A stretch of 64,000 bases of DNA from Myxococcota bacterium (GCA_036339465.1 JAYZAY010000033.1:1-64000), one strand, 5' to 3'; shown: positions 8,943-48,604, numbered from the stretch's first letter. Translations and numbers: made by a program. Notes: generated from the sequence alone by a model not told the origin.

Positions 8943-10061
8943 TTAACTCTTAGGGCTAGAACCCGAAGAAATATCAAAAAACGCGTACGCCATTTCGGTG
9001 TCCGCCCCCAGCTCCTCAGCCAATTCAGCTGACTCAAGCCCTTCCGGTGGTGGTACCATCGAGTTCGTCCAGAATCGATATTTCCCAATCGCCGGCGCAT
9101 TGACCAATGGGTCCTCAATGGCCTCTGCCACCGTAACCACGGGCTCACAACATGTCGAGACCCCCTCAAAAGCCTTGACCCACTCGTCCTGAGTCCGGCT
9201 ACGAAAACTCTCCTCTAATTGCGAAACAGCCGAATCTCGCTCCTCACCGGAAGCAAAGGCCTTATCGGTCAACTCTGGTCGTCCAACAATCTCGCAAATG
9301 GTCTTAAAAAACTTGGGTTCCAGAGCACCCACGGCCATAAATTTCCCGTCAGCTGTGGGATAGGCCCGGTAACATGGAAGTCCACCGCTCAAAAAGCTAT
9401 TACCTCCTTCAAGGGGCAAAAAACCCATACCCTGGGCAAGATAGGACAACCGTGCAAGCTTATGAACTTCGCGCGCCATGGAAATCTCAATGTGACGCCC
9501 TTTTCCAGTCCTCGTGCGTTCCAATAAGGCGGCAAGAACGGCGCTTACCGCACCTTGAGCTCCACCAAACACATCGCCTATCTGCACACCAGGAATCGCG
9601 GGAACCCCTTCGGAACAAGGCATCAAAGACATCACGCCCGCTCGCGCCAGAAAGTTAACATCGTGCCCCACCAAACCAACAGGCGATTGCGTGGTGCCGT
9701 AGCCCGTAATCGAACAATGAACCAGTTTAGGATTAAGTTTCAAGAGCGCCCCAGACTCCAACCCCAATTTACCCATCACCCCCGGTCGAAAAGAGTCTAT
9801 AAGCACATCCGCCTTCGTAACCATCTCTCGAAAAATATTTTGTTGTTCCTTAAGGTTCAACCTCACGCTTTTCTTCCCTGCATTGAGAGCATGGTAAAAA
9901 GCAGACGCCCCCTCTAATACGGGTGCCATATGACGGGCTGGGTCTCCTTCAGAGGATTCCAACTTAAATACTGTTGCGCCCATGTCCGCCAATAGGCGCG
10001 TCGCGTAGGGACCCGGTAAGTGACGGGAAATGTCTAGAACAATACAATCGGACAGGACCAT
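8943..10061 (-). CDS. CaiB/BaiF class III CoA-transferase (AMACR-like)
   Basis: LPGPYATRLLADMGA, FRPGVM.KLG, GHDVNF, GALEPKF. Start placed at ATG 10061 to avoid overlap with the SCP2 gene. Confidence 0.9.
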   Translation of the reverse strand: MVLSDCIVLDISRHLPGPYATRLLADMGATVFKLESSEGDPARHMAPVLEGASAFYHALNAGKKSVRLNLKEQQNIFREMVTKADVLIDSFRPGVMGKLGLESGALLKLNPKLVHCSITGYGTTQSPVGLVGHDVNFLARAGVMSLMPCSEGVPAIPGVQIGDVFGGAQGAVSAVLAALLERTRTGKGRHIEISMAREVHKLARLSYLAQGMGFLPLEGGNSFLSGGLPCYRAYPTADGKFMAVGALEPKFFKTICEIVGRPELTDKAFASGEERDSAVSQLEESFRSRTQDEWVKAFEGVSTCCEPVVTVAEAIEDPLVNAPAIGKYRFWTNSMVPPPEGLESAELAEELGADTEMAYAFFDISSGSSPKS

Positions 10062-41499: not shown

Positions 41500-42342
41500 T
41501 TATTGCCCCTGTAGAATAGCCCTGTAACCCTCACGGTATGATGGAAATCGAAATTCATAACCTGAATCACGCAGTCGTTGGTTGGAGCATCGTTTATTCC
41601 CCACCACACGACCGCCTGACGCCGCTCCCCGCTTCGGTATCTCACGGCCAAGTTGCGCCGACAGCCAAGTGAGCACCTCATTGTACGGAGCTGGATGGTC
41701 GTCGACTGCCACATAAGTATCTGCACAAGTGCCTAACCGAATCAGATGTAGTAGAGTTCCCACACAATCATCGATATGAATTCGATTGCTGAAAAAAGCA
41801 TCATCGAACTTAGCCCTGGCCTCTCCAGAACGAATTCTCCTAACCAAAAAAGTACGTTCCGGCCCGTAAATTCCGCCAAAGCGAATAGAGCAGCTCTTTA
41901 CCGGATAATTGGCAACAAGCGCTTCTGCCTCACGCATAATTGAACCGGTGTAACCCAAGGGTACAGAATCAGTATCCTCGTCCACCCAAGCTCCATGATG
42001 CTCTCCATACACACTGGTACTCGAAACAAAGAAAATTTGTTGTAATCGGCCCCCAAAGAGTTGAGCCGCCTCCAGCATGGTCTTTAAACCATCGATGTAC
42101 GTGGCTCGGTAGCTCTCAACGTCCCGAGAAGCCGCAGCCGCCGTATAAACCATCATGTCCGCCGGTGGAATGTTACTCAGTCCACCGGAGGGGTCATTTA
42201 AGTCAAGTCGACAACCATGAAAGGAACTCGGCAGTAATTCAATACGACGCCGGATCCCCGTAACATCGTAGCCCAATTCAATCAGGCGCAGCCCCAAACG
42301 TGTTCCGAGATCTCCACACCCCGCAATACAAACCCTCATCAA
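41500..42342 (-). CDS. NAD-dependent epimerase / atypical SDR (YeeZ-like)
   Basis: GCGDLG, SSTSVYG, GIYGP.R, NRIHIDD. Confidence 0.85.
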   Translation of the reverse strand: MMRVCIAGCGDLGTRLGLRLIELGYDVTGIRRRIELLPSSFHGCRLDLNDPSGGLSNIPPADMMVYTAAAASRDVESYRATYIDGLKTMLEAAQLFGGRLQQIFFVSSTSVYGEHHGAWVDEDTDSVPLGYTGSIMREAEALVANYPVKSCSIRFGGIYGPERTFLVRRIRSGEARAKFDDAFFSNRIHIDDCVGTLLHLIRLGTCADTYVAVDDHPAPYNEVLTWLSAQLGREIPKRGAASGGRVVGNKRCSNQRLRDSGYEFRFPSYREGYRAILQGQ

Positions 42343-43661
42343 GCCTCCACTTGTAACCTCATCATCTTAGACTCAATCCGGGAAACCCTCTTTTGGCTCA
42401 AATGCCGCTCTTCCAAAGGCGGCGACAATCTTGCGTAGTGCAGAGCTTTGGTAAGGTCTTTGAGTTGATGCTCATAGATTTTAGCCAACACGAGATGGGC
42501 TTCGTTTAAGGGTGCTGAATCGAAGGCCCCATCATCCTTTGCCAAAATCATCTCCAAACAATCGGCCGCGTCGCGGTAGAGTTTTTGTCGACGATACATC
42601 TGCGCCAAAAGCAACGCGCCCTGGAGAGCCACATTCGCCGCGTCAGAACACGCACAAACTTCCTTCGCCCTTTCAATGGCATCCGTATCCCAACTCAAAC
42701 GTCGGTTAAGTTTCGCAACTGCCAACCACACCCTTGCGTCGTCATGGGATTGCGGCTTGTGGGTGTAAAGCCCACTGGCATTCATGAGTGCTGCCATGGC
42801 CAAAAGGTCCCAGAGATTATGTTTCGCTATCTGATGTATTTTCTTCGTTTCACCACTTCGCAGAAACTCGAAATAGGCCTCGGGGATTTCTGCCCCTGGA
42901 ATATCGTCCTCGCGAATAAAACCCAATATATCACGTTCGAGGGTCGTTAATCTCCCGTCGGTCGTAATACCACCAAAAATACGCCGGCAACCATGCAGAA
43001 GGTCCAGGTGCAACCCCGGCTCCCTAAGCTTGACCCGCCCCAACACGCACCGGCTGCGAATGAGAGGCAAATCATAACTCTTACCATTGAAGGTAATAAG
43101 TGCATCCGCTGCTTCTATTTTCTCGGCCACATATCGAAGAATAGGTTTTTCTTGACCTGGCTGTCGTAAAATCAATTGCTCCGTATTAAAAGTCCCACCT
43201 TGAAAATAACCAAGACCAATCATAAAAGGAATTGTTCCTGTTCCACCTGCCAACCCCGTTGTTTCAGTATCTAGAAATAAAACATTCGGACCAATATTTT
43301 CCCCAAGGTCGGCGCCATTCAAGAAATTTCCAAGTTTGGGATAATCCCGCCAGAGACTATCTACCATAAAATCCCCATGACTGGCTTTCCCATGGAAAGT
43401 CTCCCGAACAATCTGGATTTTACTCTGACCGAAGTTCTCTTCAACCCCCGGTAAATCAACGCGTTCGATATCGGCGATAAGAGATGAATCTTCATTTCTC
43501 TTTCCGCGCCCTAAGCCCCGTAATCGCCCTCGAAACTGAGCCAACTTCACCCCATCCAAAGCCCCCCCAGACGACTTGGCGGAAATGGTCTTTGGGGCTT
43601 CATCCTCTTGCCGCCCCCCACTTCCATTCAAACGCGCTAAACGCCGTTTAATGTGCGACAT
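42339..43661 (-). CDS. RNase H-like DEDDh exonuclease with TPR-like C-terminus (YprB/MrfB-like)
   Basis: FLDTETTGLAGGTG, TFNGKSYD, HLDLLH, HNLWDL. Confidence 0.88.
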   Translation of the reverse strand: MSHIKRRLARLNGSGGRQEDEAPKTISAKSSGGALDGVKLAQFRGRLRGLGRGKRNEDSSLIADIERVDLPGVEENFGQSKIQIVRETFHGKASHGDFMVDSLWRDYPKLGNFLNGADLGENIGPNVLFLDTETTGLAGGTGTIPFMIGLGYFQGGTFNTEQLILRQPGQEKPILRYVAEKIEAADALITFNGKSYDLPLIRSRCVLGRVKLREPGLHLDLLHGCRRIFGGITTDGRLTTLERDILGFIREDDIPGAEIPEAYFEFLRSGETKKIHQIAKHNLWDLLAMAALMNASGLYTHKPQSHDDARVWLAVAKLNRRLSWDTDAIERAKEVCACSDAANVALQGALLLAQMYRRQKLYRDAADCLEMILAKDDGAFDSAPLNEAHLVLAKIYEHQLKDLTKALHYARLSPPLEERHLSQKRVSRIESKMMRLQVEA

Positions 43662-46107
43662 CGTCAATAACCTCGGAAGGATGATTGGAAAGCCATGAAC
43701 CAATTCTTAAACTCAAAGATTTTCGACTCCCAAAGTTCTGGGTTTCCTGAGATATTTGGTCGTCCCCAATGCTCGGTCCAATACAAGCCGGACAGCCATG
43801 GCGACATGTACAGCGTTCAATGAGCAAGTATGCCCCCTTTACCAGTCCGTCACGTTCATCAAAAATGCGTGGCGCCAAGCCCACCCCACCCGGAATTTTG
43901 TCGTAGATAAAAACAGTCGGCGCATAAAGAGAATGACCCTCATCCAAAGTTTCTTCACCGGTTTGAGGATCTTTAACCGTATGGCCCAGATCCTTGGGAT
44001 CGGTCATCAGGCCCACCGCCGACACCGTATGTAAAGCCTTCGCAAAACCTCGAAGCGCATCCACCACCACCGGCCGAGGAGCATCGAGTTGGGTCACCAT
44101 TTCATTGGGAATCGTGAGCCAAAAGCTGGTGGTGTGCATCTGCATATCCGGTAATCGGACATCGCCGTAACCCACATTTTCATGGGTATTGTACTTAATT
44201 TTCTTATACCCAACTATTTTTTCCGTAAGATTAACCTCGCCCAATCCAATTTGTGCATTGATACCAATGGAAGTCGGCAACACTTCGCCTTCATCCTGGT
44301 CCAACACAGCAACCCTGACATAGGTCATCGCATCGGTATAATAATCGGGTTTCACCTTGCGCACAAAAGCCTTATGGTTATCAAAATCCAATTTCTCAAC
44401 CTGAAACTGTTCACCCATATGTTGGTAGATCGCTTGTTCATGAAGCATTGTATGGGTGGAGCGCCAATCCATTTCCGCAATGGTTTTTTCGTTCTCCTGA
44501 TCAATAATCACAAAATTATCCCAGCTAACACTCCTTAGAGAAACATGGTTGGCGGGATAAGCATCGGCCGCCCAATGGTACATGGTGACACCATCCTCTG
44601 ATTCAGATCTATAAAGCAATTTGTTTTCAACCAAATACTCCAGACCATCCACCAATCCCTCAGGGGGAACATCCCCAAAAGTGTGCCCAACCTCAAAGGG
44701 CAATTCAAAGGCAGCACATTTTAGATGCTGTATAAAAATTTCGATATTATCGGGGTCAATCCTAGCATGCTCCGTGCCCGATTCGACCAAGGCCTCAGGA
44801 AAATGTGCGAAAAACTGGTCCACGGGTGAACTATTGGTCACCAAGACCGCCAAACTTAAATCGCGACGGCGCCCCGCCCGACCAAAACGCTGCCAAACAC
44901 TCGCAATAGACCCGGGGTATCCTGCGCATACCACTGCATCCAAAGAACCAATATCGATACCGAGTTCAAGAGCGTTGGTCGCAACCACACATTTAATTCT
45001 CCCCTCCCTTAAGTTCTTTTCGATTTCGCGACGCTTGCCCGGCAAATAGCCTCCCCGGTAGGCATGAATCTGTTCTGGTGAAATCTTATCCCTCGCCAAT
45101 CGCTCGCGAAGATATTTCAACATCACTTCCACCCCATTACGACTTTGTCCAAATACAATGGTGGAAACATCAGCGCGCACCAAATCCGCCGCGAGTCGGA
45201 CAGCTGCTTTGACACAACTCTCCCGAATACCCAGTTCCGCATTCACCACCGGTGGATTATAAAGTAACACCCGCTTATCTCCGGTTGGCGCCCCACTCTC
45301 CGAGACCAACCGAACCGATTCACCAATCATCTGTCCTGCATGTTCAGCCGGGTTGCCTATGGTCGCAGAGGCGAAAATAAAAGTGGGATCCGCGCCATGA
45401 AAATTCGCAATTCGCTTTAATCGTCGGAGTACGTTCGCAAGGTGGGAACCAAAAACCCCACGATAGATATGAAGTTCATCGACAACCACATATTTAAGTT
45501 CCGAAAAGAGTCGCGCCCAGGATGCATGGTGAGGTAAAATGCCTGTGTGAAGCATATCCGGATTAGTAAGCACCACCCCGCCTCTATTCCGAGCCGCTCT
45601 ACGTGCATCCGCTGGCGTATCGCCGTCATAGGTAACGGCCCCAGCATGGATGCCACAATCCTGCATCAATCCACGTAAGTTCTCCTCTTGGTCCCGAGAT
45701 AAAGCTTTGGTTGGAAAGAGATAAAGCGCTCGGGTGGATGGTGCCTCGCTCAAGGCCTGAAGAACCGGCAAGTTATAGCACAAACTCTTCCCCGAAGCCG
45801 TAGGGGTAGCAATGACCAAATGCTCTCCCTTCATGGCGTAGTCGACAGCCTGCGCTTGATGAGAATAGAGTGATGGTATCTCCTTTGCCCCTAGTGCCTT
45901 GTGAATCGTCGCCGACAGATGCGAAGGCAATGGAAGAGATTGGCCCTCAGCTGCGCCCACACGATGGTCAAAAACAAGATTATTCGAAATCCTTCCTGTC
46001 CCTAGCCATTTCTGTAAAACTGCGGCGACCCCGGTCATTTTCTTCCAGGGCTCGCGGCGGTCTGGGGAAGATTGAGCGAACTCGCTCCTTTGATTTGAGT
46101 TAAGCAT
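43648..46107 (-). CDS. DEAH-box helicase with DUF1998 (YprA/MrfA/SftH family)
   Basis: TPTASGKS, DELH, SAT, QRFGRAGR, C-terminal CTCRHGCPAC; GGAGGG RBS before ATG 46107. Confidence 0.92.
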   Translation of the reverse strand: MLNSNQRSEFAQSSPDRREPWKKMTGVAAVLQKWLGTGRISNNLVFDHRVGAAEGQSLPLPSHLSATIHKALGAKEIPSLYSHQAQAVDYAMKGEHLVIATPTASGKSLCYNLPVLQALSEAPSTRALYLFPTKALSRDQEENLRGLMQDCGIHAGAVTYDGDTPADARRAARNRGGVVLTNPDMLHTGILPHHASWARLFSELKYVVVDELHIYRGVFGSHLANVLRRLKRIANFHGADPTFIFASATIGNPAEHAGQMIGESVRLVSESGAPTGDKRVLLYNPPVVNAELGIRESCVKAAVRLAADLVRADVSTIVFGQSRNGVEVMLKYLRERLARDKISPEQIHAYRGGYLPGKRREIEKNLREGRIKCVVATNALELGIDIGSLDAVVCAGYPGSIASVWQRFGRAGRRRDLSLAVLVTNSSPVDQFFAHFPEALVESGTEHARIDPDNIEIFIQHLKCAAFELPFEVGHTFGDVPPEGLVDGLEYLVENKLLYRSESEDGVTMYHWAADAYPANHVSLRSVSWDNFVIIDQENEKTIAEMDWRSTHTMLHEQAIYQHMGEQFQVEKLDFDNHKAFVRKVKPDYYTDAMTYVRVAVLDQDEGEVLPTSIGINAQIGLGEVNLTEKIVGYKKIKYNTHENVGYGDVRLPDMQMHTTSFWLTIPNEMVTQLDAPRPVVVDALRGFAKALHTVSAVGLMTDPKDLGHTVKDPQTGEETLDEGHSLYAPTVFIYDKIPGGVGLAPRIFDERDGLVKGAYLLIERCTCRHGCPACIGPSIGDDQISQETQNFGSRKSLSLRIGSWLSNHPSEVIDDVAH

Positions 46108-46435
46108 GGTCCCTCCGACACTGTACAAATGTGCATATAATAACAAAACGGTCAAGCTTTCGGGACTGGTAAGCTTCTCCCCCCCTGAAACCTTCGGACC
46201 GAAAATCTAATATTGAAGGTGAGAGGAGAAAAAATGACCGGGCTTAACCACCAAAGTGGCGAATTACGACGCCACCATTTTAAAATGGCGGGGCCACTCA
46301 CAAAGAACAATTCCATGTTTGGGGCCAAAAGAGCTGGCTCCGCCCTTCAAGCCAAAGAAACGCGATCATCGATTCATAATTCCAAAAGTTGCGCAACACG
46401 ACACCAAATCGATTTTTAAAAGATCTAATTCACGA

Positions 46436-46451
46436 TGGCATGCAACTTGCT
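46436..46451 (+). promoter_or_regulatory. sigma-54 promoter (-24/-12)
   Basis: TGGCATGCAACTTGCT matches TGGCAyG-N4-TTGC(W) with exact GG-N10-GC spacing. Confidence 0.8.
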
Positions 46452-46461
46452 ACATAACAAA

Positions 46462-46700
46462 GGGTGACCCACCACCCACCAATGAGACTGCGAAAGTAGA
46501 TAGGTGGCGGCGAGTGCACAACCAACAAAAAGCGAGTTTAATTTGGCTCGCAGGAAGCTGATAAAATAGTAGATCTTCCCCTAGATCTCTCCGACGGGCC
46601 CGTCCCCCTTTTCCCCTTAGGGCCCTAGGAAAATTTCAGCTTTGTAAGTCTCCCCCGGACTTCCCTGCGAGCCATCCCCGCTCTTTTCCCCTAAATTTTA
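46462..46700 (+). ncRNA. candidate structured small RNA with repeated UCCCC loops
   Basis: Downstream of sigma-54 motif; 11-bp closing stem, nested 7-bp stem, three C-loop hairpins, GAAA tetraloop hairpin; no credible ORF. Ends are estimates. Confidence 0.65.
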
Positions 46701-47269
46701 TCCCACACAGCTTAAAAAGAGGTAAAAAGCCTCGGCCACTTCAGCGGACAATGGATTCCCAAGCACGCCGACTTGCACGGTTCAAACGATGCATAACCAC
46801 CAGCAACATCAACCACCCTTTCCCAGGCAATACCATAGACGATATTGTCGACCAAATCCCCTCAGGTCCTTTGGGACACCCATGAAATCCAATAATGGCT
46901 CGTTGGTGAGCAAAACCTGCGCCAAACAAAAAGCATTCCACTACTTTTGGGACCTCAAAACAGAGAGACGGCTGGATCCGTATGATTCAAGTACATGTCA
47001 TGGCGCATAAGTATGGCCTCCCATGGGAGAAAAATAAAAATCCCCTGTCAATTGATGTCCACTCACGTATTCAAAAACCTCAAGCCTAAATTCTATAACC
47101 CCCAATGGATAGGCCGAGCATTCACTTTTTTCAAAGGTGGCTGCGGAGACTACTTCTTCGTGGATTGTCACCTTGACCAAAATCACAAAGCCAAAGTATC
47201 GGCAACCTGAGACATTCACCCATGGAAGCTGGAATGCCCCATTTCGACGTGCTAACTGGAGAGTGAACT

Positions 47270-48604
47270 ATGAAAACTGAAGCTTTCGCAGTGCCCTTAG
47301 GCCCAAAACTCGAATCTGTCATCGCCACAATTCAACGCATGGGTGCGCAACCCATTCTCGTAGGTGGTTTCGTACGTGACTGGCTCCTAAACCGTCCATC
47401 CAAAGACTACGACTTTGAAATTCATGGTATGAGCCTCGCAAAACTCGAAGAAATACTTGGCCAATTCGGAGAGGTGCTAAGAGTGGGCAAAGCCTTTGGC
47501 GTTCTACGTGTCAGAGGATTCGACGTCGATTTTTCCCTCCCCCGTAAAGATAATAAGGTGGGAGCCGGGCATCGTGGATTCGAAATCGAAGTAGACCCCT
47601 TTCTACCATTCAAAGAAGCCGCGAAGCGCCGCGACCTTACCATCAACAGTATTGGGCTCAATCCCATTACCGGAAAACTCTACGACCCATACAACGGGCA
47701 AGAGGACATCAAGGCCCGCATTCTTCGACCAACCGACCCCCAACACTTCTCTGAAGACCCCCTTCGGGGCATACGAGCCGCCCAATTTGCCGCACGTTTG
47801 AATATGAATGCCCACCCAGATCTGATCAGTGTCTGCCAATCACTCGACCTTTCCGAACTTCCCTCTGAAAGAATTTGGACCGAACTCGAAAAACTGTTCC
47901 TAAAAGGAGAAACGCCGTCCCTCGGGTATCAGCTCCTTAAAGACACCGGTCTATTCAAGTTTTTCCCACGTCTTGGTACCGTACTCACATCCATGACCGA
48001 ACAAGAATGGACCCATTGGCTAGCCAAACAGGATCGCGCCATCAAGTTTCGCCCCAAAGACCCAACACACGCTATGGCATGGATGCTGTGGGCCATGATT
48101 CTACCTCTCCAATCCCAGGAAAGCCATGATTCCACCCTAAGCGCTCCACTCAGAGTTGAACACTGGGGTGGAGAGGCGCTTGAAGAGCTCCTGCAGCGAC
48201 TCAGGCCTCCAAAAGTGGTTCAAATTAAAGCGAAATTGTTCGGATATCTCTGCGAATTTGTGGGGCATCTCTCACCCAATAACAGTGCCGTTCCCGCGCT
48301 CAGACGGTGCACCCGAATCGCCGGGGAACACGGTCATACCTTTCAGCAAATCCTCGATGCCCGGCACATCCAGTCTCCCAATAGCAGTGAAACGCTCAAA
48401 GGATTGGGTCAGTGGGCCCAAACACATCAGCTTTTGCATCATTACGAGCCCGCCATTATTACTGGCCAGCATCTGATGAAAAAAGGTTTAAAACCAGGTA
48501 AACACTTTGCTCACTGGCTGGATAAATGCCTCCAATACCAAGACAGAACGGGCGAGAAGGATCCTGAAAAAATTCTTGGTGCCGTATTAACTTCCAACGA
48601 TTGA
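47270..48604 (+). CDS. tRNA nucleotidyltransferase, class II (CCA-adding type)
   Basis: VGGFVRD, DYDFE, RRDLTINS, EDPLR motifs. Confidence 0.88.
   Translation: MKTEAFAVPLGPKLESVIATIQRMGAQPILVGGFVRDWLLNRPSKDYDFEIHGMSLAKLEEILGQFGEVLRVGKAFGVLRVRGFDVDFSLPRKDNKVGAGHRGFEIEVDPFLPFKEAAKRRDLTINSIGLNPITGKLYDPYNGQEDIKARILRPTDPQHFSEDPLRGIRAAQFAARLNMNAHPDLISVCQSLDLSELPSERIWTELEKLFLKGETPSLGYQLLKDTGLFKFFPRLGTVLTSMTEQEWTHWLAKQDRAIKFRPKDPTHAMAWMLWAMILPLQSQESHDSTLSAPLRVEHWGGEALEELLQRLRPPKVVQIKAKLFGYLCEFVGHLSPNNSAVPALRRCTRIAGEHGHTFQQILDARHIQSPNSSETLKGLGQWAQTHQLLHHYEPAIITGQHLMKKGLKPGKHFAHWLDKCLQYQDRTGEKDPEKILGAVLTSND

Follow-up and report, generated by a model that had tools for sequence, protein, structure and literature searches.

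An orphan small RNA candidate with C-rich loops and a sigma-54-type promoter in a lineage-specific spacer of an uncultured marine Myxococcota bacterium

Within a 64,000-nt stretch of DNA from an uncultured marine Myxococcota bacterium (GCA_036339465.1, JAYZAY010000033.1:1-64000; hereafter the window), positions 46436-46700 hold a sigma-54-type promoter word followed by a compact multi-hairpin fold that displays six UCCCC motifs. This observation is confirmed and statistically unusual. It is plausibly explained by an orphan, lineage-specific, sigma-54-driven small RNA (sRNA) candidate with C-rich loops, which is similar in design to sX13, 6C RNA and RNAIII and is not a member of the Pxr family. 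We place the probability of a functional + strand RNA starting from the promoter at 46436-46451 at about 0.45, while specific pairing of its C-runs with G-rich sites, as suggested by analogy with the known RNAs, is a doubtful proposition. The C-loop design is already known in several bacteria; the element itself is a new, orphan candidate. All of the coordinates given in a preliminary description of this DNA (promoter, stem arms, hairpins and TCCCC starts) proved correct when re-read from the sequence.

Promoter and sigma-54 machinery

Sigma-54 promoters follow the consensus TGGCAC-N5-TTGCW, with GG and GC elements 10 nt apart and the GC element 12 nt upstream of the first transcribed base. 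The + strand word at 46436-46451 (TGGCATGCAACTTGCT, read as TGGCAT-GCAAC-TTGCT) is a sequence match that shows one departure from this consensus. Given the spacing rule, transcription would start near 46462.

The strict form of the word, TGGCAY-N5-TTGCW, was derived from the same consensus and scanned over the whole 4.17-Mb genome, yielding 15 matches versus approximately 8 expected by arithmetic from genome size. Eight of these 15 are intergenic, where approximately 1.3 are expected by chance for a non-coding share of about 17% (obtained with a crude codon-based mask). Among the other intergenic matches, six of seven precede a co-oriented ORF by 11-252 nt, and the last one is located at a contig end. 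In the genome profile search, rpoN is found to be encoded (Sigma54_DBD match, 221 bits), and 12 of the 18 Sigma54_activat matches listed score above 150 bits, corresponding to about twelve strong activator genes. Given the intergenic enrichment, rpoN and the twelve activators, the near-consensus -24/-12 promoter of the preliminary description is credible and, judging by sequence, probably real. It is an unusual promoter in that the next co-oriented gene, which encodes the CCA-adding enzyme, lies 819 nt away, in line with the roughly 800 nt initially reported. No activator gene adjoins the element, the nearest being some 10 kb away, which was counted against a + strand RNA.

Overlapping dyad repeats, GTGGCG-N8-CGCCAC and CCACCATTTTAAAATGGCGG (46257-46291, no strand assigned), are located approximately 170-205 nt upstream of the predicted start. 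These repeats, which form an inverted repeat at -180 from the promoter (pair I3) and were read in a single genome without comparative support, could constitute an activator-binding enhancer. They are contained in a 61-aa ORF (46234-46419) of borderline codon usage, whose ATG is preceded at 6 nt by a strong AGGAG-type ribosome-binding site (RBS).

Another strict sigma-54 word, TGGCATCGAACTTGCT, whose spacer is similar, occurs at 27890-27916 of contig C47 (the last 30 bases of locus L123). It lies 11 bases before the contig end and is directed away from an apparent primase-like ORF, and the DNA it would drive is unassembled. The word TTGCGCAAC-N-CGACA has only two copies in the genome, one upstream of each of these two promoters (46436 and C47). 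It was rejected as a shared promoter element, being a probable coincidence; the C47 copy is inside the apparent primase-like coding region.

Fold, exposed C-runs and strand

Sigma-54 polymerase, together with one of the approximately twelve enhancer-binding activators, would initiate near 46462 on the + strand, and the resulting transcript would consist of an 82-nt variable leader followed by a rigid 131-nt scaffold. The 5' leader (46462-46543, +, ~82 nt) is weakly structured in the model, with an unstable fold of -17.4 kcal/mol and a z-score of about -1.5. The structured core (46544-46674, +) comprises helices P1 to P5. P1 pairs two perfect 11-bp arms (46544-46554 with 46664-46674, inverted-repeat pair I2), and the nested arms of P2 add 7 bp (46555-46561 with 46636-46642). 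The hairpins are P3 (46571-46588, loop UCCCCU), P4 (46596-46625, an 18-nt loop containing two UCCCC, with a 3-bp extension at 46590-46592 with 46628-46630) and P5 (46646-46662, loop CCCCC). The C/U-rich 3' tail (46675-46700, +) presents two further UCCCC and no canonical intrinsic terminator; on the + strand, the search for terminator-like sites found none beyond the core, which was counted against a discrete + strand RNA. In such a transcript, an 18-bp closing helix would enclose the three hairpins, and the loops and the single-stranded tail would display the six UCCCC, whose DNA counterparts start at 46577, 46603, 46612, 46651, 46675 and 46687.

For positions 46540-46680 (141 nt), the minimum-free-energy fold and the centroid fold are the same, and the architecture initially described was reproduced exactly. 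The fold reaches -54.9 kcal/mol versus -33.6 +/- 3.4 in 200 dinucleotide shuffles, none of which is as stable (z = -6.24). When the 249 nt from the predicted start are folded, the + strand scores z = -3.71 and the - strand z = -1.71. In a scan of the spacer with 140-nt windows, only 46540-46679 stands out (z = -5.5 on the + strand, -2.7 on the - strand), and the remaining windows range between -2.8 and +1.7. The partition function assigns unpaired probabilities of 1.0, 1.0, 1.0 and 0.81 to the loop C-runs, and of 0.86 and 0.40 to the tail motifs.

With six TCCCC per 160 nt, the element is the densest window for this word on either strand of the 4.17-Mb genome, whose mean is 1.19 per kb; the runner-up windows have five motifs each, and both are in coding DNA. 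The earlier reading of unlike stems with loops converging on UCCCC describes one sequence, and it does not stand as a comparative result.

Both arms of the P3 stem read AGATCT and both arms of the P4 stem read GGGCCC, each hexamer being self-complementary; a further AGATCT closely precedes the promoter, at 46422-46427. Neither hexamer is avoided in the genome. Given that identical palindromic hexamer pairs 3-20 nt apart are common (388 genome-wide), these hexamer-built stems may be due to chance.

A coding function for the region finds no support, as previously claimed: no ORF of at least 40 aa spans 46562-46711, and, from the promoter to 47270, the small ORFs of the + strand present non-coding-like codon usage. 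The small ORFs of the spacer have no Pfam or PHROG match, and the 61-aa and 73-aa ORFs return only a near-identical self-match among 5.8 billion proteins. A - strand ORF at 46998-47219 has gene-like codon usage and is without relatives.

Given that 42 of the 43 pairs in the modelled fold are Watson-Crick, the fold alone cannot set the strand. The sequence variation found in metagenomes bears on this point. The stretch is present in marine or seawater metagenomes of nine studies (22 listed runs), none of them on record as RNA, and four of the 22 listed runs were compared with the window, one of which (X1) yielded no contig. The contigs from X2 and X3 are more than 99% identical to the window and have one core SNP each, both in the P5 stem. 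In X2, G46657>A changes a U-G pair to U-A; in X3, A46647>G changes an A-U pair to G-U, and pairing is kept on the + strand only. On the - strand, the reference U-G and the X3 G-U become A-C mismatches, and the P5 of X3 is left with three contiguous pairs. These SNPs, possibly errors and each supported by a single contig (depth 3.4-5), weakly favour a + strand RNA, as a directional indication.

A transcript of the opposite strand would run from 46924-46909 to 46477-46462 and present six GGGGA in loops, as a GGA-type sponge or a G-quadruplex-prone RNA. A weaker sigma-54-like word on the - strand, TGGCGCAGGTTTTGCT (46909-46924, a relaxed match), points leftwards into the core from about 225 nt upstream of it, with a chance of about 0.002 per given 450-nt stretch, and was counted against a + strand RNA. 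Just past the core, a terminator-like hairpin is followed by the T-rich run TTTGTTATGT (46462-46477, -), overlapping the predicted + strand start, and the mostly Watson-Crick fold suits this reading as well. Nevertheless, the relaxed word is barely enriched (46 seen versus about 32 expected genome-wide), and the five terminator-like sites of the region do not differ significantly from shuffles (2.0 +/- 1.5). Moreover, the - strand z-scores are just -1.7 to -2.7, the P5 variants produce the mismatches described above, and the search of this 92.8%-complete genome yielded no CsrA (PF02599). A - strand RNA is thus very improbable indeed, and the fold z-scores and P5 SNPs favour the + strand orientation originally proposed.

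Two further candidates were rejected. For a CsrB/RsmZ-type sponge, CsrA/RsmA (PF02599) was not found; for a bacterial Y RNA of the YrlA type, neither Ro60/TROVE (PF05731) nor, in 45000-48000, a tRNA-like module (ARAGORN) was found.

Locus, lineage and allelic variation

The element is located in a 1,162-nt spacer (46108-47269, no strand) between divergent genes. The - strand gene encodes an MrfA-type DEAD/Helicase_C/MZB helicase (43648-46107; assigned by domain matches, with the start set by reading) and is followed by an RNase_H_2-superfamily gene (42339-43703). The + strand gene encodes a PolyA_pol-family CCA-adding enzyme (47270-48604), after which comes Hsp33. ARAGORN detected no tRNA-like gene in 45000-48000.

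Four genomes of the family retain the divergent helicase/CCA-enzyme pair, in which the two genes are separated by 78, ~100, 199 and 324 nt. Given the 1,162 nt found here versus 78-324 nt in these relatives, approximately 1 kb of the spacer is lineage-specific. The spacers of the relatives are without a sigma-54 word. Even in the nearest relatives the CCA enzyme shares only 39-56% identity, and the source species is the sole member of its genus among the genomes compared.

Searches for homologues returned the element itself alone. As regards Rfam, the whole window produced no match at the gathering score, in agreement with the absence of a known family first suspected, and at E <= 10 the region 46100-47300 produced only a chance PinT match (46253-46302). 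BLAST with 46430-46710 found nothing in 40 relatives and, in its own genome, only the element, with no paralogue. The spacer as a whole has no paralogue in the same genome and no match among phages and plasmids. A covariance model (R1), built from one sequence and its fold, found no match in 21 genomes of the order and 150 of the phylum (E <= 1), nor in 80 metagenome loci retrieved through the helicase (E <= 10). In these 80 loci the helicase is 56-69% identical, and none has a CCA-enzyme gene adjoining the helicase gene. An exact 23-mer from the best-conserved part had no match in the metagenome contig collection. Hence, in all collections searched, the element is found only in this uncultured marine bacterium's lineage. 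The conservation and covariation of stems and loops that selection on loop display would have led one to look for did not appear, which was counted against a functional + strand RNA: no relative carries the element, and the orthologous spacer is short in the family relatives.

These results are also compatible with spacer DNA that was recently acquired or has recently arisen and has no RNA function. The repeats would then act at the DNA level, for example as an insertion relic, a recombination site or protein-binding palindromes, and the sigma-54 word would be fortuitous or vestigial. The whole 1.16-kb spacer is an orphan, without homologue in the collections searched, and the four family genomes have just 78-324 nt at this place. 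The 42 Watson-Crick pairs out of 43 form equally in DNA, two stems consist of the self-complementary hexamers AGATCT and GGGCCC, and chance alone predicts about 8 strict promoter words genome-wide. However, the intergenic promoter words exceed expectation (8 seen versus about 1.3), the element is single-copy in its genome, and palindromic hexamer pairs at 3-20 nt are common there (388). Furthermore, the C-runs fall exactly in the loops at a TCCCC density that is the genome maximum, and both P5 SNPs are of the G-U/A-U type, as expected of RNA. Overall, we regard spacer DNA devoid of RNA function as fairly unlikely.

In comparison with the + strand sRNA, a cis-acting leader would make different use of the same promoter: the sigma-54 transcript would continue through the core into the CCA-enzyme gene, approximately 800 nt downstream, and the core would control read-through or mRNA stability rather than act in trans. 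This gene (47270) is the next co-oriented one, the + strand between it and the core is without coding signal, no + strand terminator follows the core, and the tail, rich in C and poor in G, is reminiscent of a Rho loading site. Against this, the relatives drive the CCA-enzyme gene from a spacer of 78-324 nt that has no sigma-54 word, the 570 nt from core to gene are unstructured, and an 800-nt leader would be unusual for a housekeeping tRNA-maturation gene. A cis-acting leader is accordingly considered quite unlikely. There is perfect 10-nt complementarity between the leader (46487-46496) and 47283-47292, in codons 5-8 of the CCA-enzyme gene (pair I5); chance alone would produce roughly one pair of this kind in 1.3 kb, and the X6 allele differs at three of these bases.

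This X6 allele is a 164-nt contig, 82% identical over 46427-46587. All of its 23 listed substitutions and both of its indels fall within 46457-46524, and 46525-46557 is free of them. The list omits differences less than 30 nt from either end of the contig, and four differences are unaccounted for. The leader thus differs by about a third between the X6 and reference alleles, and the start of the scaffold is unchanged, a pattern compatible with constraint on the scaffold or with a recombination mosaic. A hidden coding frame was rejected as an explanation, the codon-phase differences of X6 (10/3/9) not being significant.

The family relative G003 holds a different, 324-nt insert in the same spacer (L012 1165-1488), including an apparent small ORF. 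Given this insert, the helicase-to-CCA-enzyme spacer seems to accumulate lineage-specific DNA. If the RNA is real, the locus could serve as a case study of the origin of a regulatory RNA gene, given that no homologues were found and that the spacer content varies between lineages. An sRNA gene soon after birth, in which ~1 kb of orphan DNA gained a strict promoter and a six-motif scaffold, is an improbable scenario.

Beside the start of the MrfA-like helicase, an SOS-box-like word, CTGTAC-N4-GTRCA, occurs in the window (46121-46136) and also in relatives. The sites in relatives are at L012 1171-1185, L015 1418-1432, L029 (reverse strand, near 380), L093 1909-1924 and L099 1547-1562, and a full CTGT-N8-ACAG is present beside the helicase start in some metagenome loci. 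These words suggest LexA control of the repair helicase and of the downstream RNase_H_2-family gene (42339-43703).

Possible action and comparison with known RNAs

The most likely action of a + strand sRNA would be Hfq-independent pairing of its C-runs with G-runs at or near the RBS of some mRNAs, and such pairing would block translation as with sX13, 6C RNA and RNAIII. RNAIII acts through C-rich loops on G-rich sites, blocking translation. Hfq was not found in this 92.8%-complete genome. GGGG occurs at -18 to -5 of 276 out of 4,072 putative starts (6.8%), versus 166 in the coding control, and therefore a candidate target pool exists. The main Shine-Dalgarno words are AGGAG, AAGGA and GGAGG, not a G-run, and the 3' end of the 16S rRNA is canonical; the dominance of AGGAG was counted against the proposal.

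The complementary G-rich targets anticipated in the preliminary description showed no enrichment. Genome-wide, the words that complement the 18-nt big loop occur no more often than reversed controls, and a ranking of targets by duplex energy was discarded, as it produced implausibly strong energies for any G-rich window. Given an unspecific duplex ranking and k-mer counts equal to the reversed controls, no target is named here. Since the target searches were uninformative, the pairing mechanism rests on design, not on data.

Should the six UCCCC act together, the element would be a multivalent decoy for G-run RBSs or for a C-binding protein, rather than a one-seed regulator. The second of these options supposes that six evenly exposed UCCCC on a rigid scaffold titrate a protein that binds C-rich single strands. 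CrcZ, which is sigma-54-driven, and CsrB are sponge RNAs that titrate proteins, and CrcZ in particular offers a precedent for a sigma-54-driven sponge. The motif is shown six times, in loops and tail, and extended complementary targets are not enriched, both of which fit a sponge. Conversely, no protein emerged as a candidate binder, searches of the approximately 93%-complete genome returned neither Hfq nor CsrA, and we know of no bacterial sponge for C-runs. Titration of a protein is thus very unlikely.

Among sRNAs that would resemble the candidate in pairing through C-runs, one close in design is sX13 of Xanthomonas. It is a 115-nt RNA with three independent hairpins whose apical loops contain CCCC or CCCCC, and it needs no Hfq to act on mRNAs that carry GGGG close to the start codon; GGGG is found at the RBS position of about 5% of Xanthomonas genes (PMC3771888). 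Its expression is described there only as independent of HrpG and HrpX (PMC3771888). According to that description, sX13 and the element are alike in being intergenic and in having an unstructured 5' part followed by stable C-loop stem-loops. The frequency of GGGG near starts is likewise comparable (6.8% at -18 to -5 in the element's genome, about 5% in the host of sX13), and Hfq was not found in the former. The feature of the C-loop class is present in the element, which has three hairpins with CCCC/CCCCC loops and unpaired probabilities of 0.81-1.0. Unlike sX13, the element has an 18-bp closing helix, six motifs and a sigma-54-type promoter, and it shows neither sequence similarity to sX13 nor conservation.

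The 6C RNA of high-GC Gram-positives binds several mRNAs through C-rich loops without RNA chaperones, as reported (PMC6486639). It belongs, however, to another phylum and to a conserved Rfam family, and there is no 6C match at the element.

The analogy with Pxr of Myxococcus xanthus, put forward at the outset, survives for the promoter type. Pxr is a multi-stem-loop sRNA with a predicted sigma-54 promoter and an upstream enhancer region (PMC5684412, PMC5568312). The pxr gene is described as ~108 nt long, with three stem-loops of which SL1 and SL2 are conserved, and as confined to Cystobacterineae (PMC5684412, PMC5568312); all of its homologues are located between the nla19/pxrR activator gene and an NADH dehydrogenase gene (PMC5568312). 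The element shares the sigma-54 promoter type and the multi-stem-loop design, and is otherwise set apart by these descriptions rather than by sequence. Its neighbours are the DEAD/MZB helicase and PolyA_pol-family CCA-enzyme genes, and its core has five helices with a closing stem, in at least 210 nt from the predicted start. The analogy fails for the C-rich loops, which go unmentioned in the Pxr descriptions as far as these were available (PMC5684412, PMC5568312), and for the gene neighbourhood, which is absent here.

If the RNA is real, an uncultured marine lineage joins the short list of those using sigma-54-controlled sRNAs. It would likewise add to the scattered Hfq-free RNAs with C-run loops (sX13, 6C and RNAIII) and support a repeated origin of this design.

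Eleven matches to the loop pattern in genome contigs of unrelated phyla were discarded as chance C/T-rich stretches without the architecture. A cyanobacterial genome matched by the pattern holds, at L120 (1450-1600, - strand), an array of tandem units of ~41 nt that each form a hairpin with the C-rich loop GUYCCCCUUYUCCCCCUGU; this array has a similar loop word and is unrelated to the element. Finally, an intergenic stretch of contig C95 (~9100-9320; locus L122, 800-1020), which has no Rfam match and no sigma-54 word, is located upstream of a 334-aa ORF and presents a strong fold with C-runs in its predicted loops (CCCCCC; UUCCCCCCAAUCCCC).
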